Positions 1-16,277 of a DNA stretch of 64,000 nt are shown here, piece after piece. The position numbers and the translations under genes are program-made. Within the stretch, counting starts at the first letter, position 1. Each line of letters opens with the position of its first letter. A model generated the notes under the pieces. It ran no database searches, had not been told where the DNA came from, and saw only the letters and a list, made by a program, of their open reading frames with translations. Source of the DNA: Candidatus Harrisonbacteria bacterium CG10_big_fil_rev_8_21_14_0_10_49_15 (GTDB lineage: Bacteria; Patescibacteriota; Minisyncoccia; UBA6257; 1-14-0-10-44-23); contig PFBD01000020.1 of assembly GCA_002773415.1 (NCBI GenBank), positions 25,667-89,666 of the forward strand, in the 5' to 3' direction.

Positions 1-1
1 A

Positions 2-2182
2 AAGGGTGATGACTATGTCACTGTCTTGGCACCGGTAGTGCGCGGACGGAAAGGGGAGTATTTTCAACTTTTACAGGATTTGTTTAGAGAGGGCTTTAGT
101 GAGGCGCGGATAGACGGGGAGGTTGTGTCACTGCGCGACAAAGTGGAGTTGAAGCGGTACGGCATGCATGACATTGAGGTGGTTGTGGATAAGGTGTTGC
201 TGCGGGATATCGGCAAGAGTAAGGAAAATATGACCCGGTTGACTGAGGCGGTGGAGACAGCTCTTCATAAGGGCGGCGGGTTGCTGACGGTTATTTTCGG
301 TGATGCGAAGAAGCCCCGCGTCGCTCCTAAAGGAGCTATGCGGGACAATGAGCTGATGTTATCAGCTCATTGGACTTGTCCGCGAGATAGCTTTTCTTTT
401 CCAGAGATAGAGCCGAGGCTGTTTTCGTTTAACAGTCCGTATGGAGCGTGTGAAGAGTGTCATGGTATTGGCCGAGATATGGTGACTTCAACGCCGTGCC
501 CGGCTTGTAATGGTAAGCGGCTGAAGCCGGAGGTGCTTTCTATTAAAATTGAAGGGAAAAATATTGATGAGATAGTGGCGATGGCCATTGATAAGGCGTA
601 TGAGTTTTTTGGTACTTTGGAAAACCACTTAACCGAGAATGAGAATAAAATAGCGCGGAATGTTTTGAAAGAGCTGGTGGACAGGTTGGAGTTTTTGATG
701 CAAGTCGGACTTGATTATCTTTCTCTAAATAGAGAGAGTGGTACGCTTTCGGGCGGGGAGAGCCAGCGGATAAGGTTGGCTAGCCAGATTGGGTCAAAGC
801 TGTCGGGGACGCTGTATGTGCTGGACGAGCCGACAATTGGTTTGCACGAGCGGGATAACGAGCGGTTGATCGCTATTTTGAAAGAGTTGCGGGCACTTGG
901 AAATACGCTTATTGTGGTGGAGCATGACGAGCGAGTTATTAAAGAGTCAGACTTTTTTGTAGAGATAGGCCCCGGCCCGGGGAGGCATGGCGGCGAGATC
1001 GTGATTGCGGGAGCGACTTCCTCCTTTCTTAAAGGAGGTGGCGCGGAGCGCCGGAGGACTTCTAAAATCCCTCTCGCCTCCGGCGGACTCCCTTTAAAAA
1101 AGGGAGAATCCCTAACTCTCAAATATCTAAATGGAGAGCTTGAGATCGAGGTGCCGGAGAAGCGAAGGAATAAGGATAAGGGAGTGTTAAAAATTGTTGG
1201 CGCAACCAAACACAATGTCAAAAACCTGGATGTGAATGTTCCGCTGAACAGACTTGTTTGTGTGACCGGGGTAAGTGGTAGTGGGAAGAGCACACTGGTG
1301 CATTTGATCTATAAAAATCTGCAGAGAAAATTGCACGGCTTTGAAAGCCGGATAAAGGGGGTGAGCAAGATAATGGGGACAGAGTATGTTCGCAAGGTTA
1401 TTGAGATAAATCAGTCGCCTATCGGGCGGACACCAAGGTCAAACCCGGCGACGTATACCGGGGTGTTCACTCCTATCAGGGATCTGTTCGCGCTCACGGC
1501 AGACGCGCGAGAGCGGGGTTATAAACCAAGCCGGTTCAGTTTTAACGTGCCAACGGCTAAGGGTGGCGGCCGATGCGAGGAGTGTCAGGGAGCGGGATTT
1601 AAGGTGATTGAGATGCACTTTTTGCCGGATGTGCTAGTGAAGTGTGATATTTGCAATGGAAAGCGATTTAATAGAGAGACGTTAGAGGTGAAGCACAAGG
1701 GGAAGAGTATTGCAGATGTATTGGAGATGACGGTAGAGGAGGCGTTTGATCTTTTTGAGGATGTGTACACCATTTCGGATAAGCTGCGGGTGTTGCGGGA
1801 TGTGGGCTTGGAGTACATCAAGTTGGGCCAGGCGGCAACCACTCTATCGGGCGGAGAGGCGCAGCGAATAAAGCTATCTAAGGAGTTGGCGCGGCCGATG
1901 GCGCGCAACGACTTGTTTATTTTAGACGAGCCGACAACGGGTTTGCATTATCAGGACGTGAAGATGCTTTTGGCGGTTTTGGAAAGATTAATAGACAAGG
2001 GGAATACTGTTTTGCTGATAGAGCACAACATGCACGTTATTAAAACGGCGGATTACTTAATAGACATGGGGCCGGAAGCCGGGGATGGCGGCGGAAAGTT
2101 GCTGGTCGCCGGTACACCAGAGGAGGTGGCGCGGCATCCAAAGTCGCACACGGGAAGGTATTTGAAGGAGTATCTAAGTTAA
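2..2182 (+). CDS. uvrA: Excinuclease ABC subunit A (UvrA), 5'-truncated by the window edge. Carries an in-frame ~90-bp palindromic element at ~1018-1109
   Basis: The frame is open to the window start. Tandem ABC ATPase motifs (LSGGESQR, Walker B DEPT twice) and zinc-finger cysteines (CEECHG, CNGKR) are present. The inserted peptide SSFLKGGGAERRR...KKGES is encoded by the repeat element. Confidence 0.9.
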   Translation, partial: KGDDYVTVLAPVVRGRKGEYFQLLQDLFREGFSEARIDGEVVSLRDKVELKRYGMHDIEVVVDKVLLRDIGKSKENMTRLTEAVETALHKGGGLLTVIFGDAKKPRVAPKGAMRDNELMLSAHWTCPRDSFSFPEIEPRLFSFNSPYGACEECHGIGRDMVTSTPCPACNGKRLKPEVLSIKIEGKNIDEIVAMAIDKAYEFFGTLENHLTENENKIARNVLKELVDRLEFLMQVGLDYLSLNRESGTLSGGESQRIRLASQIGSKLSGTLYVLDEPTIGLHERDNERLIAILKELRALGNTLIVVEHDERVIKESDFFVEIGPGPGRHGGEIVIAGATSSFLKGGGAERRRTSKIPLASGGLPLKKGESLTLKYLNGELEIEVPEKRRNKDKGVLKIVGATKHNVKNLDVNVPLNRLVCVTGVSGSGKSTLVHLIYKNLQRKLHGFESRIKGVSKIMGTEYVRKVIEINQSPIGRTPRSNPATYTGVFTPIRDLFALTADARERGYKPSRFSFNVPTAKGGGRCEECQGAGFKVIEMHFLPDVLVKCDICNGKRFNRETLEVKHKGKSIADVLEMTVEEAFDLFEDVYTISDKLRVLRDVGLEYIKLGQAATTLSGGEAQRIKLSKELARPMARNDLFILDEPTTGLHYQDVKMLLAVLERLIDKGNTVLLIEHNMHVIKTADYLIDMGPEAGDGGGKLLVAGTPEEVARHPKSHTGRYLKEYLS
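1018..1109. repeat. In-frame nested-palindromic element (family A), copy 1, inside uvrA. Module order B-C-A
   Basis: Hairpin tcctccttt..aaaggagg, then ggcg.gag.gccggagga, then atccctc..cggactccctttaaaaaagggagaat. The same modules recur at 2596, 11411 and 14147. Confidence 0.8.
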
Positions 2183-2202
2183 TTTCCAATTTCCAATTTT
2201 CA

Positions 2203-3573
2203 ATGAGAACGGTATTGGAAAAACTAAAAAAGGTGGCGAAGGGGTTCCCGGATAAGCCAGGGGTCTATTTTTGGCGGGACGCGAAAGGCAAGCCGTTGTA
2301 CATTGGCCGGGCGGGGAGTTTGAAAAAGAGGGTGGCGAGTTATTTTATCGCGAAAGATGCTCGGATTGCGGAGATGGTGTCGCAGGCGCGGAAGTTAGAC
2401 TATCAGCAGACGGAGACCTTGTTGGAGGCTGTTATCTTGGAAGCGAATCTTATTAAGAAGCACTGGCCGAAGTACAATGTGCGGGAAAAGGATGATAAGA
2501 GTTTCATCTATCTCGTTATTACTAAAGATCCTTCGACAAGCTCAGGACAGGGAGAATTTCCGCGCCTAGTCATTGTGCGCGGGCGGGAGCTGGAGAAATC
2601 CCTCCCGGCTATGCCGGACTCCCTTTGTAAAAGGGAGAATTATTCCTCCTTTATTAAAGGAGGTGGCCGGAGGCCGGAGGATTTTTTGGCGGTGTTTGGT
2701 CCGTATCAAAGCTATCGGATGTTACGAAAGGTGTTAGAGATCGTGCGGAAGATATTTCCGTTCGCGACGTGCAAGCCGGGAGTAGGTAGGGCGTGTTTTC
2801 ATTATCAGATTGGGCTGTGTCCGGGCGTGTGTATCGGGGCTGCGGATAAAAAAGAGTATCAAAAGACAATAAAAAACTTAATCCTGTTTTTCCGGGGCGA
2901 TAAGAAACGGTTGCTGGCGAAGTTGAAAAAAGAGAATGTTGAGGCAGTGGTCGCGCTGAAGCATATTAACGATGTGGCACTGCTTGCGGAGTCGGATTCT
3001 TTTGTGCGTGGTTCGACTGCGCTTACCACAAGGCGGATTGAGGGCTATGACATTAGCCATTCGGCCGGGAAGGAGGCAGTGGGGGCGATGGTTGTTTTTG
3101 AGAATGGGGAGGCGGATACGTCTCAATATCGGCTATTTAAGATAAGGGGCGATATTGAGGAGGTAAGAGGTAAGAGCAAAGAGGTAAGAAGGGGGTATAC
3201 GCAGGACGATATCGCGATGTTGAAGGAGGTGGTGAGTCGGAGACTAAAGCATACCGAGTGGCCGGCGCCGGATATTGTGTTTGTGGATGGGGGAGCGAAT
3301 CAGGTGCGGGCGGTGGTGGCAGTGCTGAAACAGGCAAATGTGTATGTGCCGGTTGTGGGTTTATCAAAAGGCGGCAAGCACGCCGGAAGTGCATATGCGA
3401 CGGATAAGCTAGTAATTGCTAATGCTAAGCCGGTTGGTAGAGAACTGCTGGCCGGTTCGAAGAAGTTGTTTCAAGAAGTGCGGAACGAGGCGCATCGGTT
3501 TGCGATTAGTTTTCATAGAAAACGAACACGGATAAACACGGATAGGAAACGGATGAGCACGGATAAAAAATAG
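2203..3573 (+). CDS. uvrC: Excinuclease ABC subunit C (UvrC), short form (456 aa) lacking the C-terminal RNase H/HhH region. Contains family-A and family-B in-frame repeats
   Basis: GIY-YIG N-terminus (GVYFWRDAKGKPLYIGRAGSLKKRVASYF), a UvrC homology region, and EAHRFAISFHRKR near the end. Confidence 0.85.
   Translation: MRTVLEKLKKVAKGFPDKPGVYFWRDAKGKPLYIGRAGSLKKRVASYFIAKDARIAEMVSQARKLDYQQTETLLEAVILEANLIKKHWPKYNVREKDDKSFIYLVITKDPSTSSGQGEFPRLVIVRGRELEKSLPAMPDSLCKRENYSSFIKGGGRRPEDFLAVFGPYQSYRMLRKVLEIVRKIFPFATCKPGVGRACFHYQIGLCPGVCIGAADKKEYQKTIKNLILFFRGDKKRLLAKLKKENVEAVVALKHINDVALLAESDSFVRGSTALTTRRIEGYDISHSAGKEAVGAMVVFENGEADTSQYRLFKIRGDIEEVRGKSKEVRRGYTQDDIAMLKEVVSRRLKHTEWPAPDIVFVDGGANQVRAVVAVLKQANVYVPVVGLSKGGKHAGSAYATDKLVIANAKPVGRELLAGSKKLFQEVRNEAHRFAISFHRKRTRINTDRKRMSTDKK
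2530..2551. repeat. In-frame mini-repeat (family B), ccttcgacaagctcaggacagg, inside uvrC
   Basis: Near-identical 22-25-mers occur in nfo (6884-6908) and typA (28129-28153). All are in-frame and encode (T)RST(S/G)SGQ(A/G). Confidence 0.7.
2596..2687. repeat. In-frame nested-palindromic element (family A), copy 2, inside uvrC. Module order A-B-C with terminal inverted repeats aatccctcccgg / ccggaggatt
   Basis: Read directly from the sequence. Encodes SLPAMPDSLCKRENYSSFIKGGGRRPEDF. Confidence 0.8.
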
Positions 3574-3608
3574 CCCGAGCGCGAGGAGTGGTTACCTGCG
3601 CTCGGGCT
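3574..3608. terminator. Hairpin terminator after uvrC (gcccgagcgc...gcgctcgggc)
   Basis: 10-bp GC stem. Confidence 0.5.
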
Positions 3609-3715
3609 GCCAGTTGCTACTAGGCCTCTCCCAGTGTCTATGCGCTCTGTAGCGCAATCACAGGGATAGTAGCAGCTGCCCTTTGCGCCTCCGTAGGGGG
3701 CGCGGCCCGGCTTGG

Positions 3716-3859
3716 CTACCTGGCGTTGCGACGCAGCGAGCTGGAGTTGCTCACGACGCGCTTGGAATCGCTTCCGACGCCAGCGCGACCGGACTCGCTT
3801 CCGACTCCGGCGCGGCTGAACGTGTTGGCTCGGCGACTGTAGATGACTTTGTTGGTCAT
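3716..3859 (-). CDS. Gly/Ser-rich micro-ORF (47 aa), tandem copy 1. Preceded by the conserved leader caacccccacGgagttgggagaaaggagaa
   Basis: ATG with SD ggagaaaggag. Peptide MTNKVIYSRRANTFSRAGVGSESGRAGVGSDSKRVVSNSSSLRRNAR. Lies in a GC-rich islet. Confidence 0.45.
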   Translation of the reverse strand: MTNKVIYSRRANTFSRAGVGSESGRAGVGSDSKRVVSNSSSLRRNAR

Positions 3860-3949
3860 CTGGCTTCTCCTTTCTCCCAACTCCGTGGGGGTTGCGCCGT
3901 GAAAGGGAGTTCCACGGCTGTGCCTAGGTTCGTGACGTCAGCCGCGGGC

Positions 3950-4132
3950 TCACCCGTCCAGGGTGGTGCAGGCGCGACTGTACGTCGTCACGGCTCGGCG
4001 GAGGTTGTTGGTGTCGAGGCCGCGTCCCGAGTTGGACGAGCCACTCCGGTCGGAGTTCACGCCGCCGCTCTGGATCTTCCCGCCGTCCATGATCCCGCCC
4101 CGGGCGATGCCGTGGTCTTTGATCGGATTCAC
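3950..4132 (-). CDS. Gly/Ser-rich micro-ORF (60 aa), tandem copy 2, GTG start. Same conserved leader as copy 1
   Basis: Leader caacccccacAgagttgggagaaaggagaaagcaGTG. The C-terminal ..NNLRRA.. motif is shared with copy 1. Confidence 0.45.
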   Translation of the reverse strand: MNPIKDHGIARGGIMDGGKIQSGGVNSDRSGSSNSGRGLDTNNLRRAVTTYSRACTTLDG

Positions 4133-4261
4133 TGCTTTCTCCTTTCTCCCAACTCTGTGGGGGTTGTGCGGCTCTGGGAGCCGCGAGTCCAGTTTTTATG
4201 ATATAGGAAAAAAGCGTAGCTGGAAAGATAGTTCCGGAATTCTACGGACGCGCTTTGCGCG

Positions 4262-4738
4262 TTAGCCTTTGATGTCTACTTCGCCGTCAACTAGCGGACT
4301 GGTCGCGACTTGGAAGCGCATGGTGACTACGGCGCCGCTGGTGTCTTGGGCTGGGGCGTCGGTGGCGGCGGAGAAGATGCCATTGCCGTCGTCAACGTGG
4401 AGCATGGCGTGGTAGGAGGCGCCGGCAGTGGTGGACATGACGATAGAGACGTTTTGGTGAATGCCCGGTTGGAGAAGCTTGCTACTTGCGACGATGTCGT
4501 CAGGGGCGCCGTTGCTATCGGCGTGGATGACAACAAATCCTGGCTGGGTGAGCTCTACTTGGTCAACCACAACCGCGACTTTACTTGGGTCTTGCAGGCC
4601 GATGGTCAGGCTGTTGGCTTCGGCAGTCGTGGCTACCTCCTCAGTTGGTGCGCCGGAGCGGGTGAACATAAATATTAAAAGAGCGACGACTACGATGGCA
4701 ACGATTATCCAGAAGACTGTTTTATTTTTATTCTCCAT
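4262..4738 (-). CDS. Secreted/membrane-anchored hypothetical protein (N-terminal TM helix)
   Basis: N-terminus MENKNKTVFWIIVAIVVVALLIFMF. The ORF is followed by the hairpin cgcgcaaagcgcg. Confidence 0.6.
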   Translation of the reverse strand: MENKNKTVFWIIVAIVVVALLIFMFTRSGAPTEEVATTAEANSLTIGLQDPSKVAVVVDQVELTQPGFVVIHADSNGAPDDIVASSKLLQPGIHQNVSIVMSTTAGASYHAMLHVDDGNGIFSAATDAPAQDTSGAVVTMRFQVATSPLVDGEVDIKG

Positions 4739-4804
4739 ACATGTATTTAATTACTTATTTAAAGGTAGTATACCACTGCCCTGAGTGAAAAAGAAATGAA
4801 GAAT

Positions 4805-5743
4805 TTAGGGCTGAATGCGGAGGCGATAGGTGACTTCGCGAATATTGCGGAGCACAGAATCCTGTTCATAATCGTCGGTTATACGGATGTTTTGATTTCG
4901 GGATTTATCTTTAACGATCTCCTGGATGAGTGCTTTGAGGGTGCTGACTCGATCTAAGAGAAGTTGTTGATCTTTTGTGAGGGTGCGCTTGCTGAATACT
5001 TCTTCATAAAAATCGAGTTGGACCTCAATTTGTTTTAGGAAGACTATCTGGGCCGGGTGGTTCTCGATCGCGGTCCGACGTTCTAAAAATTTTTCTTGTA
5101 GTGCTGGTGTTCTATTCTTATTTTCTTGGAGACGGATAAGCTCTGAAAGGAGATCAATAAGTTCTTTGCAGTGCTGAGTATCAAGCCCGATCACTACAGG
5201 AACAATACCATCTAGTGATCCTCTGAAATCATCAGCCAAAGAGGCAAAGTATTTCACTCTAGTTTCGGGTTTCTCGTTTAGTATTTTGCGGAGGTTGCGC
5301 TCTATTTTTTTGGTGATTATGGTTTGATCGGCCGCGCGAGTAGCGTCAATTGCGAGCGCCATGCGTTCGAATATTTCTTCATTTGTGAATTCTGCGACCG
5401 CATCAACGCCATTTCGGATATCGTCATGTGCGGATGTGCGGACGATCTCTGTTGTAAGACCAAGCCAGGCACTTCTGCGGGTTTGATCTATGACTATTCC
5501 TTCCAGCGCTTTGCTTATCTGTTCGCTGTCTGCGATAACTTCTCTATCCTTGAATTGATGTTCAAGGTGATTGGCATCGGCTATGTCGCGTTCAATCTCT
5601 TCCGCGGGAAAGATGTCTGTAAAATCTCTTGGATCTAGTCTCGGATATTCTTTCTTTACGTATTGAGTGACAGCTTCGGCGTCCTTGAGGCGTTCGCGTT
5701 GCCTGTTTAAGCCGGGAAATTGATCTGGTTTCATATTACTCAT
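4805..5743 (-). CDS. Hypothetical protein (312 aa). Near-leaderless start behind a TACAAT box
   Basis: Long ORF at host-like GC. Upstream gctacaatgagtaatATG. Confidence 0.6.
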   Translation of the reverse strand: MSNMKPDQFPGLNRQRERLKDAEAVTQYVKKEYPRLDPRDFTDIFPAEEIERDIADANHLEHQFKDREVIADSEQISKALEGIVIDQTRRSAWLGLTTEIVRTSAHDDIRNGVDAVAEFTNEEIFERMALAIDATRAADQTIITKKIERNLRKILNEKPETRVKYFASLADDFRGSLDGIVPVVIGLDTQHCKELIDLLSELIRLQENKNRTPALQEKFLERRTAIENHPAQIVFLKQIEVQLDFYEEVFSKRTLTKDQQLLLDRVSTLKALIQEIVKDKSRNQNIRITDDYEQDSVLRNIREVTYRLRIQP

Positions 5744-5766
5744 TGTAGCTTTTTATATAGAAATGC

Positions 5767-5803
5767 AAAAGGCGCTTCCATGTCCGGCGGAAGCGCCCTT
5801 TCT
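5767..5803. terminator. Bidirectional rho-independent terminator (ggcgcttcc..ggaagcgcc with flanking T/A runs)
   Basis: 9-bp stem with U-runs on both strands. Confidence 0.6.
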
Positions 5804-5853
5804 GCGTGTGCTTGGCCTTAGCCAGGGGCACGAGCGGCGAGACCCCGCCTTTC

Positions 5854-6360
5854 TTATCGGGCTTTGGCGCCGCGTTTGCCAAGCTCGGAGAAGAGGTGGT
5901 GACTTATCTGAGCCCGACGCTCCTCGTTGCCCTTGCCATCCCAGTTGTAGTTGGAGAGGGTGTGATTGACGGCCTGGATGACATGGCTGTCGTGCGAGAC
6001 GTCGCTGCTTCTGAGGGCGTCTTGCTCACAGACCCAGGCCAGGAAACGAGCAGCCTGGTCGACGAGCTGGCGAGGCGAGAGGAAGGAGCCTCTTTTTGCC
6101 CAGTTGTCGTTTTTCCGCTGACCTCCCCGCTGCCGGACAAGGTACCCGATGGCGGCCTTGTAATCGTGGAAGGTATCGTCGTCGCTTGGCCCGAAGTGTT
6201 CGGAAACGACCTCTGTGATGATCGTGTCCATCGGGTTCTGGTCACGACCACGGACGGCGTACTTATCCAGTGCTGCGCGAGCAGCGTCCTGAACCCGTTG
6301 CTCGTTGATGAGCGGCGGCGGCTTCTTTCTTCTTGCGCTCACTTGGTTGCCCCCTGTCAA
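5854..6360 (-). CDS. Hypothetical protein in a GC-rich islet. Start is TTG at 6360 or the GTG 15 nt downstream (SD agggggc)
   Basis: 168-aa ORF in a ~63% GC segment. It has its own TATAAT box (rc of 6406-6411) and a downstream terminator. The overlapping plus-strand ORF 5806..7347 is a read-through artefact fused to nfo. Confidence 0.5.
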   Translation of the reverse strand: MTGGNQVSARRKKPPPLINEQRVQDAARAALDKYAVRGRDQNPMDTIITEVVSEHFGPSDDDTFHDYKAAIGYLVRQRGGQRKNDNWAKRGSFLSPRQLVDQAARFLAWVCEQDALRSSDVSHDSHVIQAVNHTLSNYNWDGKGNEERRAQISHHLFSELGKRGAKAR

Positions 6361-6427
6361 AAGACAGGAGTGTGCGCAGGTGAAGCAACCCAGTGCTACT
6401 TCTATCTATATTATAACATTTTTTTAT

Positions 6428-6459
6428 TTGAAAATCAAGGGTGGGACGTGTGGTACAAT
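6428..6459 (+). promoter_or_regulatory. nfo promoter: extended -10 (TGtgGTACAAT) with an upstream TTGAAA. Leader only ~6 nt
   Basis: Sequence ttgaaaatcaagggtgggacgtgtggtacaatggcgagATG. Confidence 0.5.
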
Positions 6460-6465
6460 GGCGAG

Positions 6466-7347
6466 ATGGCAAAGTTAGGCAAGCCACTTCTAGGCGCGCA
6501 TGTTTCTGTGGCCGGCGGATATGAAAACGGCATTACTGCGGGTGAAGCCATGGGCGCGGAAGTTATTCAGATCTTTGGCGCGAGCCCGCGGCAGTGGGCT
6601 GTTAAAGTTTCGAGTGAAACGAAGGTCGAGGCATTTAAAAAACAGTTTGCGACTAGTTCGCTGCAGGCGCTGTATTTACACGGCGCGTATTTGGTGAATT
6701 TAGGAGCGGCTAATCCGGAGGCGTGGCAAAAATCAGTAGCGAATCTGATCGCGCACTATCAGATCGCTACTCATCTGGGCGCGGATGGACTGATCTTTCA
6801 TGTGGGCAGCCCAAACGGAGACGATAAGCAGCAGGCTATGGACAGGGCTATTAAGGGTATGAAAGAGGTGCTGAAAAAAGTAACCCGTTCGACAAGCTCA
6901 GGGCAAGCCGGCAAAAGTTGGCTGATTATGGAGAACTCGGCGAGCCATAAAAAGCTGGGGGCGACGCCGGAAGAGATGCGGTATATGTGGGATGGCGTTG
7001 GCTCGGATCGGGTTAAGGTTTGTATTGATACGGCGCATGCGTTTGAGGCGGGGCTTATCATGGAGTACGCGCCGGCCAAGATCAAAGTATTTTTAGACGA
7101 GTGGGACGCGGCAGTTGGTTTGAAAGAAATTCCGGTGCTTCACGTCAATGATTCTAAGACCGCAGCCGGGTCTAATAATGATCGGCATGAGAATATCGGC
7201 GAGGGTTTGATTGGTAAGCAGGGGTTTGCGCATTTGGCTCGGGAGAAGAGGATGGCGGGCAAGCACTGGATATTAGAGGTGCCGGGATTTGACGGGAAGG
7301 GGCCGGATAAACGGAATTTGGATATTTTAAAGCGCTGTGTATACTAA
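6466..7347 (+). CDS. nfo: Endonuclease IV (Nfo, AP endonuclease family 2) with an in-frame family-B mini-repeat
   Basis: MAKLGKPLLGAHVSVAGGY..; the HVGSPNG and NDSKT..GSNNDRHENIGEG motifs. The inserted TRSTSSGQAG peptide is encoded by the repeat at 6884-6908. Confidence 0.85.
   Translation: MAKLGKPLLGAHVSVAGGYENGITAGEAMGAEVIQIFGASPRQWAVKVSSETKVEAFKKQFATSSLQALYLHGAYLVNLGAANPEAWQKSVANLIAHYQIATHLGADGLIFHVGSPNGDDKQQAMDRAIKGMKEVLKKVTRSTSSGQAGKSWLIMENSASHKKLGATPEEMRYMWDGVGSDRVKVCIDTAHAFEAGLIMEYAPAKIKVFLDEWDAAVGLKEIPVLHVNDSKTAAGSNNDRHENIGEGLIGKQGFAHLAREKRMAGKHWILEVPGFDGKGPDKRNLDILKRCVY
6884..6908. repeat. Family-B mini-repeat (cccgttcgacaagctcagggcaagc) in-frame in nfo
   Basis: See 2530 and 28129. 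Confidence 0.7.
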
Positions 7348-8197
7348 AAGCATGAATAAAAGGATTCTCTGGGTAGTGCTCATTATTATAGTAATCCTGG
7401 TTGTGGTCGGCTTTGTGTTGCCGGCTTCAGAGCGGGTGCCGGTTGAAGACCCGGCTGACGAAGAACCGCTTCTGCCGAGCGTGTCGGCAAATGGGAATAT
7501 GAAGGTGTGGTGGCCGTGGCCGGGAGTGGAGGTGATGCGCCCGCTACGCATCTTGGGCGAGGCGCGGGTATTTGAGAACGCGCTTAGTTATCGTGTTAGG
7601 AATAATTCCGGCGAAATAATTGCCGAGGGATTCACGACTGCGTCCGCGCCGGATATTGGTCAGTTTGGTCCGTTTGTCGTGAGTGTGCCATATGAGGCTC
7701 AGGCGGAACTCGCCGGTACGGTGGAGGTTTTCGCGCACAGTGCTAAAGACGGTTCAGTAATTGAGCTGGTGAGCATTCCGGTTAAACTGGCGCAAGTTGA
7801 GTCAACCGCCGTGGCCGTCTATTTTGGTAATGCAATTAGCGACCCGGAAGTGCAGGCATGTGAGCGAACTTATCCGTCCGTTCGGATAGTGCCGAAGACG
7901 ACCGCGGTGGCGCGTGAGGCGCTGGAGCAGTTGCTCTCCGGACCGACTGAAGTTGAGCAGGAGCTTGGATTTTTTACAAGTATTCAGGACACGAAAGCCG
8001 TGAAAATTCAATCCTTGACCATTAAGGACGGAGTTGCTACGGTTGATTTAAGTGCCGCCTTAAGCGCAAGTGCGGGCGGTAGTTGCCGAGTAGTCGCTGT
8101 CCGTTCACAGATCATAAATACCTTGCTACAATTTGAGACTGTAGACGAAGTAGTTATATCGGTTGAAGGCGAGACAGATGAAGTCTTACAGCCGTGA
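7337..8197 (+). CDS. GerMN-domain (spore-germination-like) lipoprotein/secreted protein
   Basis: N-terminal TM segment. The C-terminal region AREALEQLLSGPTEVEQELGFFTSI..VATVDLS is typical of the GerMN domain. Confidence 0.6.
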   Translation: MYTKSMNKRILWVVLIIIVILVVVGFVLPASERVPVEDPADEEPLLPSVSANGNMKVWWPWPGVEVMRPLRILGEARVFENALSYRVRNNSGEIIAEGFTTASAPDIGQFGPFVVSVPYEAQAELAGTVEVFAHSAKDGSVIELVSIPVKLAQVESTAVAVYFGNAISDPEVQACERTYPSVRIVPKTTAVAREALEQLLSGPTEVEQELGFFTSIQDTKAVKIQSLTIKDGVATVDLSAALSASAGGSCRVVAVRSQIINTLLQFETVDEVVISVEGETDEVLQP

Positions 8198-8273
8198 TAG
8201 TATTCGCTAATAATGCGAATAAACTCAAGTAATAATGCTAATGGTCGCTACATAAAGAAGAGTACGTAGAAGT

Positions 8274-9125
8274 TTGGTAATTATTAATTCATTAATTAAA
8301 ACTATTATGTTAAAGAATATTATTTTGAGTGTTGCCGCGCTTGCGATTGCTTTGCCGGTCGGTGCGCAGACGCCGCCGCCACTCCGGGTGCGAACTGAAG
8401 CGCAGGCAGAGATGCGCGCTGAGACACGTACAGATGTTCGTCCGGTTCAGATGCACGCGGGAGAAGAGGTGCGCGTACAGGTGCGCATGGAGGGCGAGGG
8501 CGAGCTTCGCGGTGAAGCTATGCGAGAGCACATGATGGAAGAGCGGGCTATGATTATGGAGAATCGTGAGGCTCGTCGGATGGAGCGCACTGAGTTGCGG
8601 GCCGAGCACCGTACAGAGTTACGAGCGCGTGTGGGGGATTTGCAAGACGAGAAGCGAGCAGAGCGCGTTTTGAAGATCGATGAGCGGTTGGCTGCAATTA
8701 ATGAGCGGATGACGACTCATTTTTCTGAGAAACTATCTAAGCTACAGGATCTAACCCTTAGGATTGCCGCTCGGGCAGATGCGGCCGAAGAGAATGGTGC
8801 TGATGTTTCGACGGTGCGCGAGGCCTTGGCAAACATTGATAAGCAGGTTGATATCGCCCAGGAAGCTGTTACTGCCCAAGTTGGCATGACCTACGAGATT
8901 ACCTTTGAGAGCAGTGACACTCTGCGGGCGGATATTCAGGCGGTTAAGGAGGAGTTGCGCTTAGAGTTGGTGGCTGTGAAAGAAGCTGTGCAGGCCGCGC
9001 AAAAGACGGTCCGAGACGCGCTGGTTGCTTTGGCCGCGGTTGTTGATGCTCGAGACGATGTAGAGGTAGAGGTGGAAGCTGAAGCAGAGGTTGAGGTCGA
9101 AGAAGAAGTGGAGTCGGAATCATAA
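8274..9125 (+). CDS. Secreted coiled-coil protein with a Glu/Val-rich acidic tail
   Basis: Signal peptide, Arg/Glu-rich heptad-like region, C-terminal EVEVEAEAEVEVEEEVESES. Confidence 0.6.
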   Translation: MVIINSLIKTIMLKNIILSVAALAIALPVGAQTPPPLRVRTEAQAEMRAETRTDVRPVQMHAGEEVRVQVRMEGEGELRGEAMREHMMEERAMIMENREARRMERTELRAEHRTELRARVGDLQDEKRAERVLKIDERLAAINERMTTHFSEKLSKLQDLTLRIAARADAAEENGADVSTVREALANIDKQVDIAQEAVTAQVGMTYEITFESSDTLRADIQAVKEELRLELVAVKEAVQAAQKTVRDALVALAAVVDARDDVEVEVEAEAEVEVEEEVESES

Positions 9126-9143
9126 TCAATAATCTAATTTGCT

Positions 9144-9392
9144 ATGAATAAACAAAAAGGTTCAGCGGGAGTTGTTTGGGTCATAATCATTGTTATCGTG
9201 GTGGCGCTACTGATCTGGTGGCTCGCCGGTACAGGTCCTGCAGAAGCACCTGCAGTTGAGGAGAACGAGACGCTTTCCGAGCAGATTGAAGATCAAGAGG
9301 CAGCTGAGATTGCGGCCGAGCTCGAGGGCCTGGGCGAGGCTGACTTGGAGGCAGAGTTTTCTGATGTTGAGACAGACTTAGAGCAACTGTAA
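9144..9392 (+). CDS. Small membrane-anchored acidic protein
   Basis: N-terminal TM segment VWVIIIVIVVALLIWWL, then an acidic tail. Confidence 0.5.
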   Translation: MNKQKGSAGVVWVIIIVIVVALLIWWLAGTGPAEAPAVEENETLSEQIEDQEAAEIAAELEGLGEADLEAEFSDVETDLEQL

Positions 9393-9418
9393 AAAATAGT
9401 AAGTAACAATTAGTAGAA

Positions 9419-9452
9419 ATCGGCTCCGACGTAGGTCGGAGCCGATTTCGTT
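9419..9452. terminator. Rho-independent terminator (atcggctccgacgtaggtcggagccgat + T-run). A TATAAT box follows directly
   Basis: 11-bp stem. Confidence 0.6.
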
Positions 9453-10494
9453 GTATAATGGAATAATGGAGAAGAAAGAAACTAGAAACTCGAATATAGA
9501 AACTGGAATAGCTGCCCGGGCTGCGATTTTGATTCTATTTTCTAGTTTTTATTTTCTAGTTTCTGCGCCTTTGGCGCATGCGCAGGAGTATGGTTTTTTG
9601 GAGCGGAATATTTGGTTTTCACAGGAGCTGCTTTTTGCCGGTGAGACAGTGCGGATCTACACAGTTGTTTTTAATGGTAGCGAAGAGGATGTTACCGGTA
9701 CTGTTGAGTTTTATGATCAGGCGGAGAAGCTCGGCGAAGCCAAGTTTTCTTTGGCAAAAGGAGAGCAGTTGCGCGATGTTTGGATAGATTGGTTGGCGAA
9801 AGAGGGCGAGCATGCAATTACCGCTCGCATAAATGGTGCTAGCTCAGCAATTTTGACTAAGGTCGTGGATGGCGATCGGGATGGTGATAAGATTGGCGAT
9901 AGGGAAGATCTGGATAATGATAATGATGGTATCTCTGATGCTCAAGAAAAAAAAGACGGCACAGATCCTTTTAAGGCGGATACAGATGGTGATGGTCTTA
10001 ACGACTTGGAAGATCCGGCACCACTTGTTTTTAATCTAAAAGAGGAAAAACAGGAACAAGTACAAAAAGAAGAAAAGCCGACTTTAAAAGATACGGCGGA
10101 GGTGGCAACTGCGAATGTTCTTGGGGTAATGGAGGGTTTTCGGGAGCGATACGAACAGGGGCTAGAAGATAAAAAACAGGAACTGCGGGGCGAGCTCGAT
10201 GCGTATAAAGAGGAGGATGCCTTGGCTCGGCAGGAGCAGTCAAATAGTCGCAATACTTCCGGTCAACGTCTTAATGAGGCGGCCGGAGAGGAGTTTGTGC
10301 GTTTGACTGACAGTGAAGATGGCCTGCCAAAGTTGTCCGGGGCGAGGATTGTTAAATTTTTGTATTACGGAGTTGTCTCTGTTGGATTGTTTATTTTTGA
10401 ACACAAGCCTGTGTTCTACGCGGTGCTGGGGTTGATATTCCTGAAGTTCATCTTTATTATCATCGGCAAATTTCGCAAGAAACGCTACGGGTAA
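9451..10494 (+). CDS. Secreted/membrane protein with thrombospondin-type-3-like Ca-binding Asp repeats and C-terminal TM helices
   Basis: Signal peptide, then DGDRDGDKIGDREDLDNDNDGISD..DTDGDGLNDLEDP, then C-terminal hydrophobic segments. Confidence 0.65.
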   Translation: MYNGIMEKKETRNSNIETGIAARAAILILFSSFYFLVSAPLAHAQEYGFLERNIWFSQELLFAGETVRIYTVVFNGSEEDVTGTVEFYDQAEKLGEAKFSLAKGEQLRDVWIDWLAKEGEHAITARINGASSAILTKVVDGDRDGDKIGDREDLDNDNDGISDAQEKKDGTDPFKADTDGDGLNDLEDPAPLVFNLKEEKQEQVQKEEKPTLKDTAEVATANVLGVMEGFRERYEQGLEDKKQELRGELDAYKEEDALARQEQSNSRNTSGQRLNEAAGEEFVRLTDSEDGLPKLSGARIVKFLYYGVVSVGLFIFEHKPVFYAVLGLIFLKFIFIIIGKFRKKRYG

Positions 10495-10560
10495 CATCAG
10501 ACGAATTACGAATTGGTTACGAATTTACGAATCAGGTCTTTTCCGCTACGCTAGAGCGAT

Positions 10561-11643
10561 ATGAACAGAGGGTTTTGGAGTGAATTAAAGAAGCCAATAA
10601 TGGTGCTGGCGCCGATGGCGAATGTCACGGATGCGGCTTTTCGGCGCATTATTGCCAAGTACGGTAAACCGGATGTTTTTTGGACAGAGTTTGTTTCGGT
10701 AGAGGGATTGTTGTCGGTAGGTCGGGAGAAGTTGCTGATAGATTTTTGGCATACAAAAGAGGAGAAACCGATTGTGGCGCAGATTTTCGGTGGGAAACCG
10801 GAGCAGTTTTACGAAGTGGCCAAGCTTTGCGTGGAGTTGGGTTTTGATGGGATTGATATCAATATGGGTTGCCCGGATAAGGGTGTAGAGAAAAGCGGCG
10901 GCGGCGCGGCTTTAATAAAAGATCCGGCGCGTGCGCAAGAGATAATTTTGGCGATTAAGGGCGGCGTGAGAGACGTGGGTAGTGCCATCCCTGTCTCGGT
11001 TAAAACTCGGCTGGGCTATAACAAAAATGAGCTGGAAACTTGGGTACAGGCGCTTTTAAAAGCTGAGCCGGCGGTGATAACCATGCACTTGCGCACGCGC
11101 AAAGAGATGAGCAAGGTTCCGGCGCACTGGGATCAGATGCGAACGATGGTGGAACTCGTTACACGTTATACGAATCGTGATACACGGCCATTGCTTTTTG
11201 GGAATGGTGATGTGATGAGCGTTGAGGAGGCGCGGATGAAAGTTGCGGAAACTGGCGCAGATGGAGTGATGCTTGGCAGGGCTATTTTTGGTAACCCCTG
11301 GTTATTCGCGAAAGATCCTTACTCCAATGTTCTTGAGAACATTGGAGTAAGTGAAAGGCTGCAAGTGATGGTAGAGCACACCAAGCTTTTTGAGGAGTTG
11401 TATGGATTGAATTCCTCCTTTTCTAAAGGAGGTGGCCGAAGGCCGGAGGATTTAAATCCCTCCCGGTTGCGCCGGACTCCCTTTACAAAAGGGAGAATTA
11501 AGCCGTTTGATCTTATGAAAAAGCACTATAAGGCGTATTGTAACGGGTTCGATGGCGCGAAAGAGTTGCGAGTGAAGTTAATGGAAGCGGAAACCGCGGC
11601 GGAGGTAGAGGAGTTGGTGAGCTTGTTTTTGAAAAAGAGCTAG
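10561..11643 (+). CDS. dus: tRNA-dihydrouridine synthase (Dus family) carrying an in-frame family-A element
   Basis: MVLAPMANVTDAAFRRI.., NMGCP, and the catalytic-region hallmarks. Insert NSSFSKGGGRRPEDLNPSRLRRTPFTKGRIKPF. Confidence 0.85.
   Translation: MNRGFWSELKKPIMVLAPMANVTDAAFRRIIAKYGKPDVFWTEFVSVEGLLSVGREKLLIDFWHTKEEKPIVAQIFGGKPEQFYEVAKLCVELGFDGIDINMGCPDKGVEKSGGGAALIKDPARAQEIILAIKGGVRDVGSAIPVSVKTRLGYNKNELETWVQALLKAEPAVITMHLRTRKEMSKVPAHWDQMRTMVELVTRYTNRDTRPLLFGNGDVMSVEEARMKVAETGADGVMLGRAIFGNPWLFAKDPYSNVLENIGVSERLQVMVEHTKLFEELYGLNSSFSKGGGRRPEDLNPSRLRRTPFTKGRIKPFDLMKKHYKAYCNGFDGAKELRVKLMEAETAAEVEELVSLFLKKS
11411..11498. repeat. Family-A element copy 3 (inside dus), module order B-C-A
   Basis: attcctccttttctaaaggaggtggccgaaggccggaggatttaaatccctcccggttgcgccggactccctttacaaaagggagaat. 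Confidence 0.8.
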
Positions 11644-11653
11644 GTGCGAATCG

Positions 11654-11684
11654 GACCCGCGCGACGCTGTGCGTTGCGCGGGTC
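11654..11684. terminator. Hairpin terminator (gacccgcgcg...cgcgcgggtc) serving dus and the minus-strand micro-operon
   Basis: 10-bp GC stem. Confidence 0.5.
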
Positions 11685-11704
11685 CGTAGTCCTTGTCCGG
11701 GCCT

Positions 11705-11863
11705 TTAGTGGGCCCGGACCGGAGACGATTCACCCGAGTTCGGCACGGGTGAGTCCGAGGAGTGTAGTAGCAGGCAAAGCCCTCCTACTACAACCACAAT
11801 CGTCCAGAACCAGACGAGCAGCTTCATATACATCTGGCCGTCTCTGGACTCTTCTGTCGTCAT
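11705..11863 (-). CDS. Unannotated 52-aa single-TM peptide
   Basis: SD ggagaactagATG sits 16 nt after the upstream stop. Hydrophobic core KLLVWFWTIVVVVGGLCLLL. GC-rich. Confidence 0.45.
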   Translation of the reverse strand: MTTEESRDGQMYMKLLVWFWTIVVVVGGLCLLLHSSDSPVPNSGESSPVRAH

Positions 11864-11879
11864 CTAGTTCTCCTTGGGG

Positions 11880-12221
11880 CTAGGCGAACTCGAGTCCGGC
11901 CTCAAGTTCCTCCCAGGACATCGACCCCCCTGACTCTTCGTCTCGGGGGTCGGCCTCCTTTACGGGTCGACCGGCCGGCCGCCCGGTGGGGGCGGAGTAG
12001 CGGCGGTCCGTTCTGGGATGGGGCTTCGAGTCCAGGATCCCGCTTGGTGTTCTCGGCTCTCGTACGGTGGCGCGTTGTGTTCGGGCCAAGGTACCCTCCT
12101 CTTCTTTTTGCCAGCTGATGTAGCCGGCACCTTTCTTTTTATAGCGCTTGCATAAGGAATAGTCAAATAGCCAGTTCATTTTAGATAGTGGTACACTGGG
12201 TAATATATGCAATTTGAGCAA
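11880..12221 (-). CDS. Hypothetical protein in a GC-rich islet. The true start is probably internal (MNWLFDY..). Co-oriented with the micro-peptide gene
   Basis: ORF with GC-rich, Arg/Pro-rich composition. Its stop is immediately followed by the SD of the next micro-ORF. Confidence 0.4.
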   Translation of the reverse strand: MLKLHILPSVPLSKMNWLFDYSLCKRYKKKGAGYISWQKEEEGTLARTQRATVREPRTPSGILDSKPHPRTDRRYSAPTGRPAGRPVKEADPRDEESGGSMSWEELEAGLEFA

Positions 12222-15200
12222 GAACTAAAAAGATTAAATCTGGCTCAGCGGCTGGCGGTGGAAACCATTGAAGGGCCGGTGATGGTCATTGCCGGGCCAG
12301 GTACGGGTAAGACGCAGATCTTGACGCTGAGAATTGCGAATATTTTGGCTACGACGGACACTGAGCCGGAGAATATCTTGGCCATCACCTTTACGGAGAG
12401 CGGTGTTGCGGCGATGCGCAAGCGTTTGGCGAGCATTATCGGAGCGCCGGCGTATCGTGTATGCATCACGACGTTTCACGCGTTTTGTAATTCGATAATC
12501 CAGGAGCACGCGGAGAGCTTTCCGCGAGTAATCGGCAGTACGGCGATGACTGAGGTGGATCAAGTTCTAGTTCTTCAGTCACTAGTCACTAGTCTTAAGT
12601 TAAAGGCCTTAAGGCCTTTTGGCAACCCTTTCCATTATCTGAAGGATATTTTAAATGCGATAAACGAGATGAAGAGGGAAAATGTCAGCCCGGAGAAGTT
12701 TGCCAAGATTGTGGCCGAGGAAGAGGCAGTTTATGAGCGACTTGATGAGAGCGAGACGCATCACCAAAAAGGCGCGCATCAAGGGAAAAAGAAGTTGGAG
12801 TATGTAAAAAAAGAAAAGCAGATAGCGAAGAGCAAAGAGTTGAGTGCTGTATATTCTCAATATCAAGACGAACTAGGCAAGCAAAAGCGCTATGACTACA
12901 CGGACATGATCATGGAGGTGGTGCGGGCGCTTGAGCAAGACAAGGATCTTTTATATGAGTTGCAGGAGCAGTATCAGTATGTGTTGGTGGATGAGCATCA
13001 GGATACGAATAACGCGCAGAACAAGTTGTTGGAGTTACTGCTAAGCTTTCACGATAATCCAAATTTGTTTGTGGTGGGGGATGCGAAGCAGGCTATTTTT
13101 CGTTTTCAGGGGGCGAGTTTGGAAAACTTTTTGTATTTTAAGAATTTGTATCCCGAGGCAAAGCTTATTGAGCTGGAGCATAACTATCGAAGTACTCAGA
13201 CTATTTTGGATTCGGCGCATGGTGTTCTACCAAGTCCAAAGCCGCTTCAAGCTCAGGCTCAGCATCCAAAGAAGCAGATTCTTTTGGCAGAGCTGACTAG
13301 CCCAGACGCGGAGCTGTATTGTGTCGCAAAACATATTCAAGAGCGAATTTCCGCTGGAGCAGCTAGAGAGGAAATAGCTGTTTTGTATCGGGACAACAAA
13401 GATGTTTTGGGGGTAGCTAAGATGCTGGAGCGGTTGGAGGTGCCGTTTGTGATTGAGTCTAACCAGAATTTGTTTGAAGATAAAGAAGTAAAAAAACTGC
13501 TTGGTTTGTTATACGCGACTCACCATCTTGGTAATCAGGAGTTGTTGACCGCCCTGTTGCATACGGATTTTTTGAACATTGATCCGCTGGACGCGTACAA
13601 GCTCGTTATTTTTGTAACCAGAAAAAAGAATGCGGAAAAAGGAAGGAGGTTGGGATTGTATGATGTGCTGCGGTCAGAAAAACTACTGAGCGCCGCGGGG
13701 GTGGGAGATCCAAAACCGTTTTTGGAGCTGTACGCGAAGTTGGCAGGCTGGCGAAAGTTGAGCGAGTACTCGAACGTGGCCGAGGTGTTTGAAGTAGTTG
13801 TGCGCGAGAGCGGCTTGTTGGCACATATTCTGGCGCTACCAAATGCGGTCGAGGCGCTGGCGAAGATCAATACTTTGTTTGACGAGGCAAAGAAGTTGCT
13901 GGAGGCTCACCCGCGCTACTCTTTGGCGCAGTTTGTGGAGTACTTGGATATGCTGCGCGAGCACGATCTACTAGTGAAAAACACCCGGCCCGGACGAGTG
14001 AGCCACGCGGTGCGGCTAATGACCGCGCACGGCTCTAAAGGTCAGGAGTTTGAGTATGTGTATATCGTCAATGCTTTTGACGGGCACTGGGGGAATAAGC
14101 GGCGGATAGAGAAGTTGAAGCTGCCAGTTGGTGTTTATACTCTAGGAGGATCCCTCCCGGCTACGCCGGACTCCCTTTACAAAATGGAGAATAATTCCTC
14201 CTTTACTAAAGGAGGTGGCCGTAGGCCGGAGGATTTTTTCAAGGATGACAAAGATGACAAAAACGCCGACGAACGAAATCTTTTTTATGTGGCGTTGACG
14301 CGGGCCAAGCGGGAGATTGTTATTTCGTACGCGCAGGCGCGCGCGGATGGTAAAGAGCAGTTGCCGAGTCAGTTTGTGGCAGAGATACCAGAGGGGTTGC
14401 TGGAAAAAATGGATGTGAGCGGTTATGAACGAGAGCTTAGCGAGCGACAGGAAATCGTTTGGACAGGACCCTCCTTCGCTAAAGCTACGGAAGGGCAAGG
14501 TAGGGTGGCGGAAAAAGAATTTGTGCGCGAATTATTTTTGGAGCGGGGACTAGCCGTTACGGCACTCAATAATTATCTGACCTGCCCGTGGCAGTGGTTT
14601 TATTCAAATCTGTTGCGTGTGCCCGAAGCGCAAAATAAGCATCTGTTGTATGGCACGGCGATTCACGCGGCGTTAAAAGATTTTCATGATTGGCGTCAGG
14701 CAGATAATAAAAAGGGGAAGGCCGAGGAGTTTTTGATTGGGGCTTTTGAAAATGCATTAACGCGACTCCCCTTTTCGGAGCGTGATTTAGCAGAGACTTT
14801 GGAAAAGGGTAAGCTGGCTTTAGCCGGATATTATGAGGAGTATAAAAAAACATGGAACTCTCCCCTGCTTTCAGAATTTGCCGTGGCCGGCGTGCATGTG
14901 CCGGTTAGTGGTGTAAAGGATGTTAAGGAGTTGCGTTTGACCGGAAAACTAGACGCGGTGGAGGTGTTAGCGAACGGGCGAGATGTAAGCGTGATAGATT
15001 ACAAAACCGGCAAGCCCAAGAGCCGGAACGAGCTTATGGGTAAGACAAAGAGTGCGGACGGAAACTACTACCGGCAGTTGGTTTTTTACAAATTATTGTT
15101 GGATAATTATCCAAGCGCCGGGAAGAAGAAGTATGAAATGGTCTCCGGCGTGATTGACTTCATAGAACCAAATGACCGCGGGAAGTACATTCGCGAGGAG

Positions 15201-15344: not shown

Positions 15345-15345
15345 A

Positions 15346-15867: not shown

Positions 15868-15877
15868 ACGTACTAAC

Positions 15878-15909
15878 CTATTTCACAATTTGGTTAAATT
15901 GTGAAATAG
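15878..15909. promoter_or_regulatory. Perfect-armed 32-bp palindrome ctatttcacaatt-tggtta-aattgtgaaatag (putative operator), followed by a TATACT box
   Basis: 13-bp arms. A second copy lies downstream of the same regulator gene and a variant lies at 20602. Confidence 0.6.
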
Positions 15910-15923
15910 GGTATACTGGGATC

Positions 15924-16202: not shown

Positions 16203-16221
16203 TAATTTATTCTAGTTAAAC

Positions 16222-16253: not shown

Positions 16254-16277
16254 GTTATGGTTTTTTTATGTTGTTTT

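Follow-up and report, generated by a model that had tools for sequence, protein, structure and literature searches.

In-frame palindromic repeats in the genes of a Patescibacteria genome are built from a two-hairpin unit that also bounds DUF559 nuclease cassettes

Four housekeeping genes, three of which act in DNA repair, in a 64-kb stretch of the Candidatus Harrisonbacteria bacterium CG10_big_fil_rev_8_21_14_0_10_49_15 genome (from groundwater; contig PFBD01000020.1, positions 25,667 to 89,666; hereafter the window) each carry a hairpin-rich segment of about 90 nt that keeps the reading frame and contains no stop codon. Our analysis revealed that each of these segments is an inserted copy of a dispersed repeat consisting of a single unit of about 44 nt, termed R here, that is present in inverted orientations. 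The same units form both ends of small cassettes encoding a DUF559 nuclease (PF04480), a Vsr-like protein of the PD-(D/E)XK fold, which establishes a physical link between the repeat and this gene. The four segments are probably gene-less, non-autonomous members of the R family, whose units end the DUF559 cassettes.

The original prediction placed four copies at 1018-1109, 2596-2687, 11411-11498 and 14147-14238, and all four were recovered there. Together the two units of a copy span 87-92 nt. A pattern describing the first hairpin matched the window eight times, at the four sites on both strands, against an expectation of 0.07, and a pattern for the second hairpin matched four times against an expected 0.00. 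Scans with nhmmer profiles and with a covariance model run without filters found exactly four units on the + strand (X, 52-55 bits) and four full-length units on the - strand (Y, 14-26 bits), with no other significant X or Y unit in the 64 kb. Pfam assigned three of the hosts to UvrA, UvrC and Dus, and the fourth to a fusion of a UvrD-type helicase with a PD-(D/E)XK nuclease. All four are long open reading frames (ORFs) on the + strand, and their translations run through the segments as had been claimed.

Each unit R comprises a long hairpin, whose 5' arm is pyrimidine and whose 3' arm is purine, followed by a short hairpin and then by a tail, GGAGGATTT, with the consensus form GGAGGRATTT. The short hairpin is GC-rich and hypervariable, being free in sequence while its pairing is retained. 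The original prediction distinguished three modules, A, B and C. These are present, but C proves to be a diverged form of the reverse complement of A-B. Unit X is A-B on the + strand, TTCCTCCTTTnnTAAAGGAGG-TGGCCGnAGGCC-GGAGGATTT, and unit Y, module C, is the reverse complement of a second R flavour with the long hairpin CTCCCTTT/AAAGGGAG. The covariance model had been trained solely on X units of other genomes, and its full-length matches to all four Y units on the opposite strand therefore give each unit R a polarity.

In the uvrA copy, X lies at 1018..1060 (model match 1019-1060, 52.2 bits) and is of the CCTCC flavour, with the long hairpin CCTCCTTT/AAAGGAGG, the short hairpin GGCGC-gga-GCGCC and the tail GGAGGAC. 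Its Y partner at 1066..1109 (1066-1107, 24.5 bits, E=1e-5) is of the CTCCC flavour and reads hairpin, hairpin, tail on the - strand. The dus copy has the same order, with X at 11412..11454 (11413-11452, 55.1 bits) and Y at 11455..11498 (11455-11496, 26.2 bits). The uvrC copy is a divergent Y-X pair, with Y at 2597..2640 (2597-2638, 22.2 bits) and X at 2643..2685 (2644-2683, 54.4 bits). The helicase-nuclease copy is also Y-X, with X at 14195..14237 (14196-14235, 54 bits) and the most weakly matching Y at 14149..14192 (14150-14190, 14 bits, E=0.03), whose long hairpin contains one mismatch (AAAATGGAG). All X units lie on the + strand and all Y units on the - strand. The units are thus tail to tail in uvrA and dus and head to head in uvrC and the helicase gene, and these are simply the two possible pairings of inverted units. 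Two module orders had indeed been predicted, but the permuted one, in uvrC and the helicase gene, is C-A-B and not B-C-A, and the inverted-repeat halves were assigned the wrong way round: they abut, as ccggaggatttaaatccctcccgg, in the A-B-C copies of uvrA and dus, and are terminal in the permuted copies.

At the nucleotide level copies 2 to 4 are mutually about 90% alike, reaching 92% over 90 nt between copies 2 and 4, while their flanks are unrelated; the similarity first proposed thus holds once the copies are aligned. In the uvrA copy both short hairpins differ in sequence yet still pair (GGCGC/GCGCC and CGCC/GGCG) through compensated changes, and this copy is older or separately derived. 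Folding, which had been proposed as a check, gave every copy a stable structure whichever strand was used, with energies of -37 to -44 kcal/mol and z-scores between -2.4 and -4.4. No Rfam 15 family matched positions 1-16000 of the window at E<=1.

Orthologues of all four hosts lack the segments, as the original prediction had anticipated. In UvrA (26..2182, truncated at its 5' end by the window start) the insert follows the first ATPase module and precedes the SLTxxYL segment, and query residues about 333-359 have no counterpart in PDB 9gxk, where the alignment passes from chain residue 603 to 604. In the helicase-nuclease (12207..15344) the alignment to PcrA (PDB 1pjr) leaves query residues 636-681 without a partner, which places the insert after chain residue 592 and before 593. 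The UvrC segment (gene 2203..3573) occupies a variable linker after the GIY-YIG domain and is absent from most homologues in an alignment of 27 sequences, the window protein and 26 others. An AlphaFold2 model based on this alignment places insert residues 135-156 in coil, with no secondary structure and a predicted local distance difference test (pLDDT) score below 50. In the tRNA-dihydrouridine synthase Dus (10561..11643) the X-Y pair sits in the C-terminal helical domain as an exact insertion of 87 nt, or 29 codons, relative to the 48% identical Dus of locus L066, whose site is uninterrupted. The L066 protein carries two inserts of its own at other sites, both absent from the window Dus. These alignments show all four segments to be insertions. 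The uvrC copy was also present in an independent JGI assembly at 99.97% identity and is therefore not an assembly artefact; the UvrC protein is recorded on three contigs.

A probable decayed fifth unit lies upstream in uvrC at 2527..2560, with no strand assigned (gatCCTTCGACAAGCTCAGGACAGGGAGAAT / CCTTCGACAAGCTCAGGACAGGGAGAAT, encoding PSTSSGQG). It finishes with the 3' arm of the long hairpin, AGGGAGAAT, and the string of the segment also occurs nested in the short hairpins of Y units in L038. In the UvrC alignment this segment is extra relative to most homologues and is shared by P0017 and P0008, and the AlphaFold2 model gives residues 112-117 a pLDDT below 50. The decayed unit suggests that very old insertions persist. 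Of the 27 UvrC sequences, at least five contain R-family inserts, and further ones contain inserts that belong to different repeat families. Parcubacteria UvrC homologues in particular show many further lineage-specific inserts of such origin at several positions, with VIASxxRSNPG, LPRRxRLAMT and SGQGxFP among the encoded peptides. Insertion of repeats without loss of frame seems to be general in Parcubacteria.

The two halves of the element are read differently. X is translated in one frame in all four copies, giving SSFxKGGG (uvrC, SSFIKGGGRRPED; dus, SSFSKGGGRRPED; helicase-nuclease, SSFTKGGGRRPED), whereas Y is read in three frames: IPLASGGLPLKKGE in uvrA, SLPAMPDSLCKREN and SLPATPDSLYKMEN in uvrC and the helicase, and NPSRLRRTPFTKGRI in dus. 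The three frames of Y show that the DNA is conserved and not the peptide. An example of a predicted junction-spanning peptide is ...ENYSSFIKGGGR... A single shared peptide had been claimed for all copies; SSFxKGGG is indeed in four of four, but RRPED occurs in only three, being missing in uvrA because the short hairpin there is 2 nt longer, and LP..PDSL.K is confined to the uvrC and helicase copies. Across genomes, every in-gene X unit in sense orientation is read in the SSFxKGG frame despite the presence of a second open frame, and antisense units are mostly read as ATSFxKGGI, opposite-orientation copies giving ATSFxKGGI or PPPLxKEE. This frame preference, drawn from small numbers, suggests selection on the encoded peptide.

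We scanned other genomes for X using one genome per species and requiring the exact long-hairpin sequence, which under-samples the diversity of the family. At least 117 loci carried the X hairpin, mostly in Patescibacteria, with hosts including Saccharibacteria, Taylor-, Lipton-, Nomura- and Jacksonbacteria among others, and a few metagenome-assembled genomes (MAGs) of Bacteroidota and Elusimicrobiota. The commonest arrangement is X followed on the same strand by Y after 3-21 nt, then solo X and Y-X, and Y-X-Y arrays also occur (arrays in L118 and L124); the relative orientation of the units is fixed throughout. The permuted copies had been taken to indicate either a circular intermediate or two autonomous half-elements. 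The solo, X-Y, Y-X and Y-X-Y forms fit the half-elements, and a circular intermediate, though possible, is not needed. A scan of metagenomes with a Y pattern specific to copies 2 to 4 returned only the uvrC region of the window (L136, 99.97%) and one unrelated solo Y, and the X pattern had no match among IMG/VR viral contigs, giving no sign of a phage vehicle.

Outside the window the units are largely intergenic. About 19 of 122 (~16%, leaving ~84% intergenic) fell within ORFs as delimited by a crude ORF caller, at a coding density of ~0.81 (binomial p about 1e-54), and the family is not specialised for insertion into genes. The window, with four of four copies intragenic, differs from the family elsewhere (Fisher p=9e-4); the same count is what random insertion into 87.5% coding DNA would be expected to give. 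Units lie close to gene ends, with neighbouring genes in tandem in 65 cases, convergent in 20 and divergent in 14. In-frame copies elsewhere are found in UvrA (L075), MurD (L113 and L022), Dus, AtpG, Lgt, RmuC, TatD, an M24 peptidase and glycosyltransferases. Given these varied hosts, and because the window begins in a repair-gene neighbourhood, the DNA-repair flavour of the four window hosts is incidental, and the bias that was first proposed falls away. Two sites recur. The UvrA copy of L075 (1621-1715) is a Y-X pair at the site of the window's X-Y pair, just before SLTLxYL, and the interdomain loop of MurD is occupied in opposite orientations in L113 (3500-3597) and L022 (1020-1111). Identical sites in UvrA and MurD were struck independently in different genomes. 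The native UvrA codons AAA TCC CTN resemble the R tail, which hints at a target preference.

The element has a larger relative that carries a gene. In loci L003, L067 and L078 about 340 nt separate X and Y, and the opposite strand of this interval encodes a 115-residue DUF559 protein (PF04480, E=1.7e-28). A tblastn search located unit-bracketed DUF559 genes in ten X-selected loci, together with two remnants. The link was also evident from the protein side: at least 73 of 120 DUF559 homologues in a protein-similarity search, and about 90 by eye, end in EILRLASSPPPLxKEE, the peptide that the reverse complement of X gives when translated in-frame. In the DNA of independent DUF559 loci a unit ending in GGGAGGGATTT directly precedes the ATG, and a second, inverted unit runs over the final codons and the stop. 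The tail GGGAGGGATTT looks like a ribosome-binding site. The source genome has a DUF559 gene of its own, encoding P0150 (COU11_01435), in an array of the form U-D / U-gene-D / U; its locus-tag prefix is shared with the window UvrC (COU11_02200). P0150 matches the DUF559 structure 3HRL (5.9e-11), weakly the catalytic domain of I-Bth0305I (3R3P, 0.005), and the PADLOC 'homing endonuclease' model (2.3e-5). The DUF559 proteins here have 115-130 residues and comprise the nuclease domain only, and their gene follows secA, atpC or lepB depending on the genome. Across several phyla DUF559 was the only cargo found between units, no systematic search for transposases having been made.

The association extends into a large family, of which 19,098 clusters at 50% identity reach E<=0.001. 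Distant DUF559 members are flanked by other peptides, among them TPPxEGN, PPAPFKKGE and SPLRRG, which are translated pyrimidine/purine hairpins of different sequence. Whole DUF559 cassettes also occur in-frame within a Mur ligase, the phosphoglycerate mutase iPGM, DNA methylases and Type ISP restriction enzymes. The order hairpin peptide, nuclease domain, hairpin peptide is seen in P0284, P0336, P0349, P0366, P0376, P0385 and P0386, and such cassettes in host proteins resemble an endonuclease insertion without an intein. The cassette in the Mur ligase P0366 and the gene-less doublet in the MurD of L113 occupy different sites.

The two pair types of the window have counterparts in the cassettes. 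Deleting the gene from a cassette brings the two tails together and yields the X-Y doublet of uvrA and dus, and the junction at which two successive cassettes of an array meet is the Y-X arrangement of uvrC and the helicase gene. [quoted passage not shown]

The short hairpin is under a constraint of its own. Among 94 distinct short-hairpin sequences we counted 474 Watson-Crick positions against 115 G.A, 28 G.T, 14 C.T and 13 A.C. In an ungapped alignment of 33 units, five of the six pairs showed compensatory changes on both sides, with a covariation score of 0.102 compared with 0.043 after shuffling; none of 500 shuffles reached the observed value, and slid controls collapsed. A frequent form is GGC-GA-G-yyyG-C-GA-GCC, a tandem sheared G.A beside a CUUG/UCYG-type loop around which the outer stem covaries. 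Of 102 X short hairpins, 36 contain the purine version of the tandem G.A and none contains the complementary form; in Y this ratio is reversed. The asymmetry points to a strand-specific folded form, either RNA or single-stranded DNA. We also observed other small palindromic repeats nested in the short-hairpin loops of R (L016, L025, L019, L070, L038 and L093), for example ...GTCCTGAGCGAAGTCGAAGGAC... and ...CGTCGCGTAGCCGCTATGGCGGAGCACGG..., and the loop appears to be an insertion hot spot.

We infer that the DUF559 nuclease mobilises R-bounded DNA. The nuclease would recognise or cut R units, probably folded as single strands or cruciforms, and repair or recombination would then copy the R-bounded DNA to new sites. 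Insertions into genes would mostly be purged, the survivors being those in surface loops, in-frame and stop-free, which would be translated as disordered peptides of about 30 residues. On this account in-gene copies may persist only when they meet all three of these constraints.

Several observations weigh against this account. There is no DUF559 gene within the window. Each exact DUF559 protein was found in a single conserved context per genome, which is the behaviour of a stable single-copy gene and not of one that jumps. We found no clear target-site duplication at the in-gene copies or in the filled and empty dus pair; only A/T-rich palindromic ends (AATT) were seen at the in-gene copies and in the comparison with the 48% identical Dus of L066. 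No empty allele was found, and hence no direct sign of a transposition event. The short hairpin varies within one genome yet stays paired, where simple copying and decay predicts otherwise. The Y-X pairs of uvrC and the helicase gene do not correspond to empty cassettes, and to account for them one must further assume independent units, junction fragments or trimming. Finally, the G.A strand asymmetry could stem in part from shared ancestry and not from selection.

The main rival reverses the relationship between doublet and cassette. The X-Y doublets would be landing sites, spread by some other means, and a homing-type DUF559 nuclease would cut their palindromic centre, GGAGGATTT/AAATCCCTCC, and copy itself in. 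The gene does lie exactly between two tails in full cassettes, P0150 resembles I-Bth0305I, whose target is pseudopalindromic (PMC3239194), and a genome has a single DUF559 copy but many doublets. We nevertheless regard landing sites as rather unlikely. They leave unexplained how doublets and solo units spread to dozens of unrelated sites, coding loops included; the downstream unit overlaps the conserved C-terminal codons (EIL), as though gene and unit were co-adapted, and units also flank the gene in tandem.

It is also conceivable that R is a conventional MITE moved by an unseen DDE or HUH transposase, and that DUF559 is a frequent passenger or a sharer of regulatory hairpins. The elements are short and mostly intergenic with inverted ends and many copies, their carrier contigs are often fragmented, and MITEs are known to produce in-frame fusions (PMC10969869). 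We hold this to be improbable, as the duplications expected of such an element were not seen, DUF559 was the sole cargo found between units in several phyla, in most homologues the DUF559 ORF runs into a unit at its end, and distant DUF559 subfamilies carry hairpins of the same kind with other sequences. No transposase was met beside the units, although transposases were not systematically searched for.

Another alternative is that the hairpins are structural RNA or single-stranded DNA elements maintained by the host for mRNA stability, termination or ribosome pausing, no longer mobile, the in-gene copies being tolerated or useful relics. A perfect Shine-Dalgarno-like AAAGGAGGTG is held in the hairpin, the free energies and z-scores given above are good, pairing of the short hairpin is preserved throughout the copies by compensatory changes, with the tandem G.A kept and the outer stems covarying, and units stand near gene ends in all orientations. 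A cellular role of this kind would not, however, explain the tight link to a nuclease gene. Copies are also found, in both orientations, in coding loops that are unrelated, their placement with respect to neighbouring genes is inconsistent, Rfam offers no match, and we find the proposal improbable. That the segments are ancestral low-complexity loops, Gly-, Ser- and Pro-rich in variable linkers as they are, or an assembly artefact can be excluded, given the roughly 90% nucleotide identity of copies that lie in four unrelated genes and have unrelated flanks, the three reading frames of Y, the absence from orthologues, and the recovery of the uvrC copy from an independent JGI assembly and of its protein on three contigs.

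Three further candidates were rejected. An intron, an intein or another element excised from RNA is at odds with the short length, and the constraints on frame and stops favour translation. CRISPR and diversity-generating retroelement repeats have the wrong anatomy. An internal ribosome-binding site as the primary function lacks a consistent downstream start codon.

Several known systems share features with R. Ogata et al. in 2000 reportedly described Rickettsia palindromic elements (RPEs) lying in-frame and without stops in unrelated genes, where they add a peptide at tolerated sites. RPEs are short palindromic repeats, many per reduced genome, that sit in-frame in housekeeping genes and also between genes, and a 2024 review still marks them as unusual (PMC10969869). 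The RPE-like reading of the original prediction stands, in that the window holds nucleotide-level palindromic repeats in-frame and stop-free in unrelated housekeeping genes; the likeness is one of behaviour. In contrast to RPEs, however, R is found in Patescibacteria and not Alphaproteobacteria, is about 90 nt long where RPEs are about 100-150 nt, consists of two inverted units of ~44 nt that also occur singly and in arrays, and is mostly intergenic. RPEs have one conserved peptide per family, whereas here this holds for one half only, Y being read in three frames, and unlike RPEs, which have no known partner gene, R units bracket a nuclease gene.

A parallel in organisation exists with REP (repetitive extragenic palindromic) sequences, their inverted doublets (REPINs) and bacterial interspersed mosaic elements (BIMEs), and the REP-associated tyrosine transposases (RAYTs), in which hairpin units form inverted doublets and arrays and flank a single-copy nuclease-type gene (PMC3116915, PMC3337134). 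R units are likewise hairpins of a few tens of nt in two flavours, arranged singly, as doublets or in alternating arrays, with a flanked single-copy gene whose site varies by genome. The gene itself differs, RAYT being a Y1 HUH transposase and the flanked gene here a Vsr-like PD-(D/E)XK nuclease. R also differs from REP in having two hairpins and a conserved tail without a GTAG-type head, in its occurrence within coding regions (four of four copies in the window and ~16% elsewhere) where REPs are extragenic, and in its hosts, CPR (candidate phyla radiation) bacteria and Bacteroidota as opposed to Proteobacteria.

MITEs derived from insertion sequences (Correia/NEMIS, ERIC and BOX) are also small, with inverted ends and many copies, non-autonomous, and occasionally form in-frame fusions (PMC10969869). 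For R we found no transposase-encoding parent, none having been searched for systematically, and its larger relative encodes only the 115-residue nuclease. I-Bth0305I is a homing endonuclease with a Vsr-like fold (PMC3239194), and the EDxHD/Vsr-like homing endonucleases it represents (3R3P) share with DUF559 the nuclease fold, at a weak similarity of E=0.005, and the habit of selfish genes that interrupt host genes. Unlike these, the DUF559 genes here have no intron, intein, NUMOD or helix-turn-helix domain and are bounded by structured repeats that are also found without the gene. Integron attC cassettes resemble R in their arrays of small cassettes, in imperfect palindromes that keep structure over sequence, and in an implied strand-specific folding. 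R has neither an integrase nor the R''/L''-L'/R' core, however, and its long hairpin and tail are conserved in sequence and its units dispersed over the genome. The R element thus lacks some defining features of each of these families and is best classed as a non-autonomous palindromic repeat element. We found no published description of in-frame palindromic elements in CPR bacteria, of DUF559 mobile elements or of the motif strings, although our coverage of the literature was incomplete and an earlier description is possible. The novelty first proposed, a selfish element in one CPR-like reduced genome, stands to that extent but was drawn too narrowly, as many Patescibacteria and some Bacteroidota and Elusimicrobiota carry the family.

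A wider interpretation, which we offer tentatively and think somewhat less likely than not to hold in full, is that DUF559 proteins are the nucleases of an unrecognised class of selfish elements. Their two-hairpin inverted units would also spread without the gene, as REPINs do, and both the cassette and the gene-less form would settle in-frame in essential genes as a general source of the lineage-specific peptide insertions of CPR proteins. R appears to be selfish DNA of a kind not described before, one that contributes peptides to proteins. It provides a concrete source, at the level of nucleotides, for the unexplained lineage-specific insertions that abound in CPR/Patescibacteria proteins, and it extends the RPE phenomenon, until now a curiosity of Rickettsia, to a very different lineage with reduced genomes. 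DUF559, among the larger domains of unknown function, gains a testable role as the nuclease of a repeat-bounded selfish cassette, and a second, independent partnership of gene and repeat of the REPIN-RAYT type, on another nuclease fold, is possible. In practical terms, R repeats in MAGs break up assemblies, raise the number of spurious 'hypothetical protein' calls, and disturb both the alignment and the structure prediction of housekeeping proteins.

Positions 1-20000 of the window, in which all four copies fall (within the first 14.2 kb), form a DNA-repair neighbourhood of uvrA, uvrC, an AP_endonuc_2 protein, the helicase-nuclease, a NUDIX protein and DinB (18482-19663). The AP_endonuc_2 protein (5806-7347) has a 246-residue N-terminal extension. 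Two of the host genes contain further inverted repeats, a perfect one of 16 bp with a 2-nt loop inside dus at 11318-11351, 60 nt upstream of copy 3, and one of 12 bp in uvrA at 346-372, each far beyond chance for coding DNA. Other repeats lie between genes. A palindrome family, AACCTATTTCACAATTT / AAATTGTGAAATAGG, has three copies at 15874-15913, 16219-16256 and 20599-20638, which may be operator or terminator sites, and two perfect palindromes of 34-40 nt (TTCATTCTCTATTTCTGCAGAAATAGAGAATGAA) stand at 31604-31637 and 31937-31976 around an intergenic stretch of ~300 nt. AT-rich intergenic repeats, AATTTCCAATTT..., occur at 2181-2204, 18857-18928, 23770-23841, 46999-47070 and 62839-62915, the 72-nt copies at 23770 and 46999 being 92% alike. 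A direct repeat of 114 nt at 45522-45635 and 49744-49857 is 85% alike, and a surface protein with Ig-like domains (Big_9, He_PIG) encoded at 55199-57118 contains tandem repeats of 36 and 42 nt at 55289-55624.

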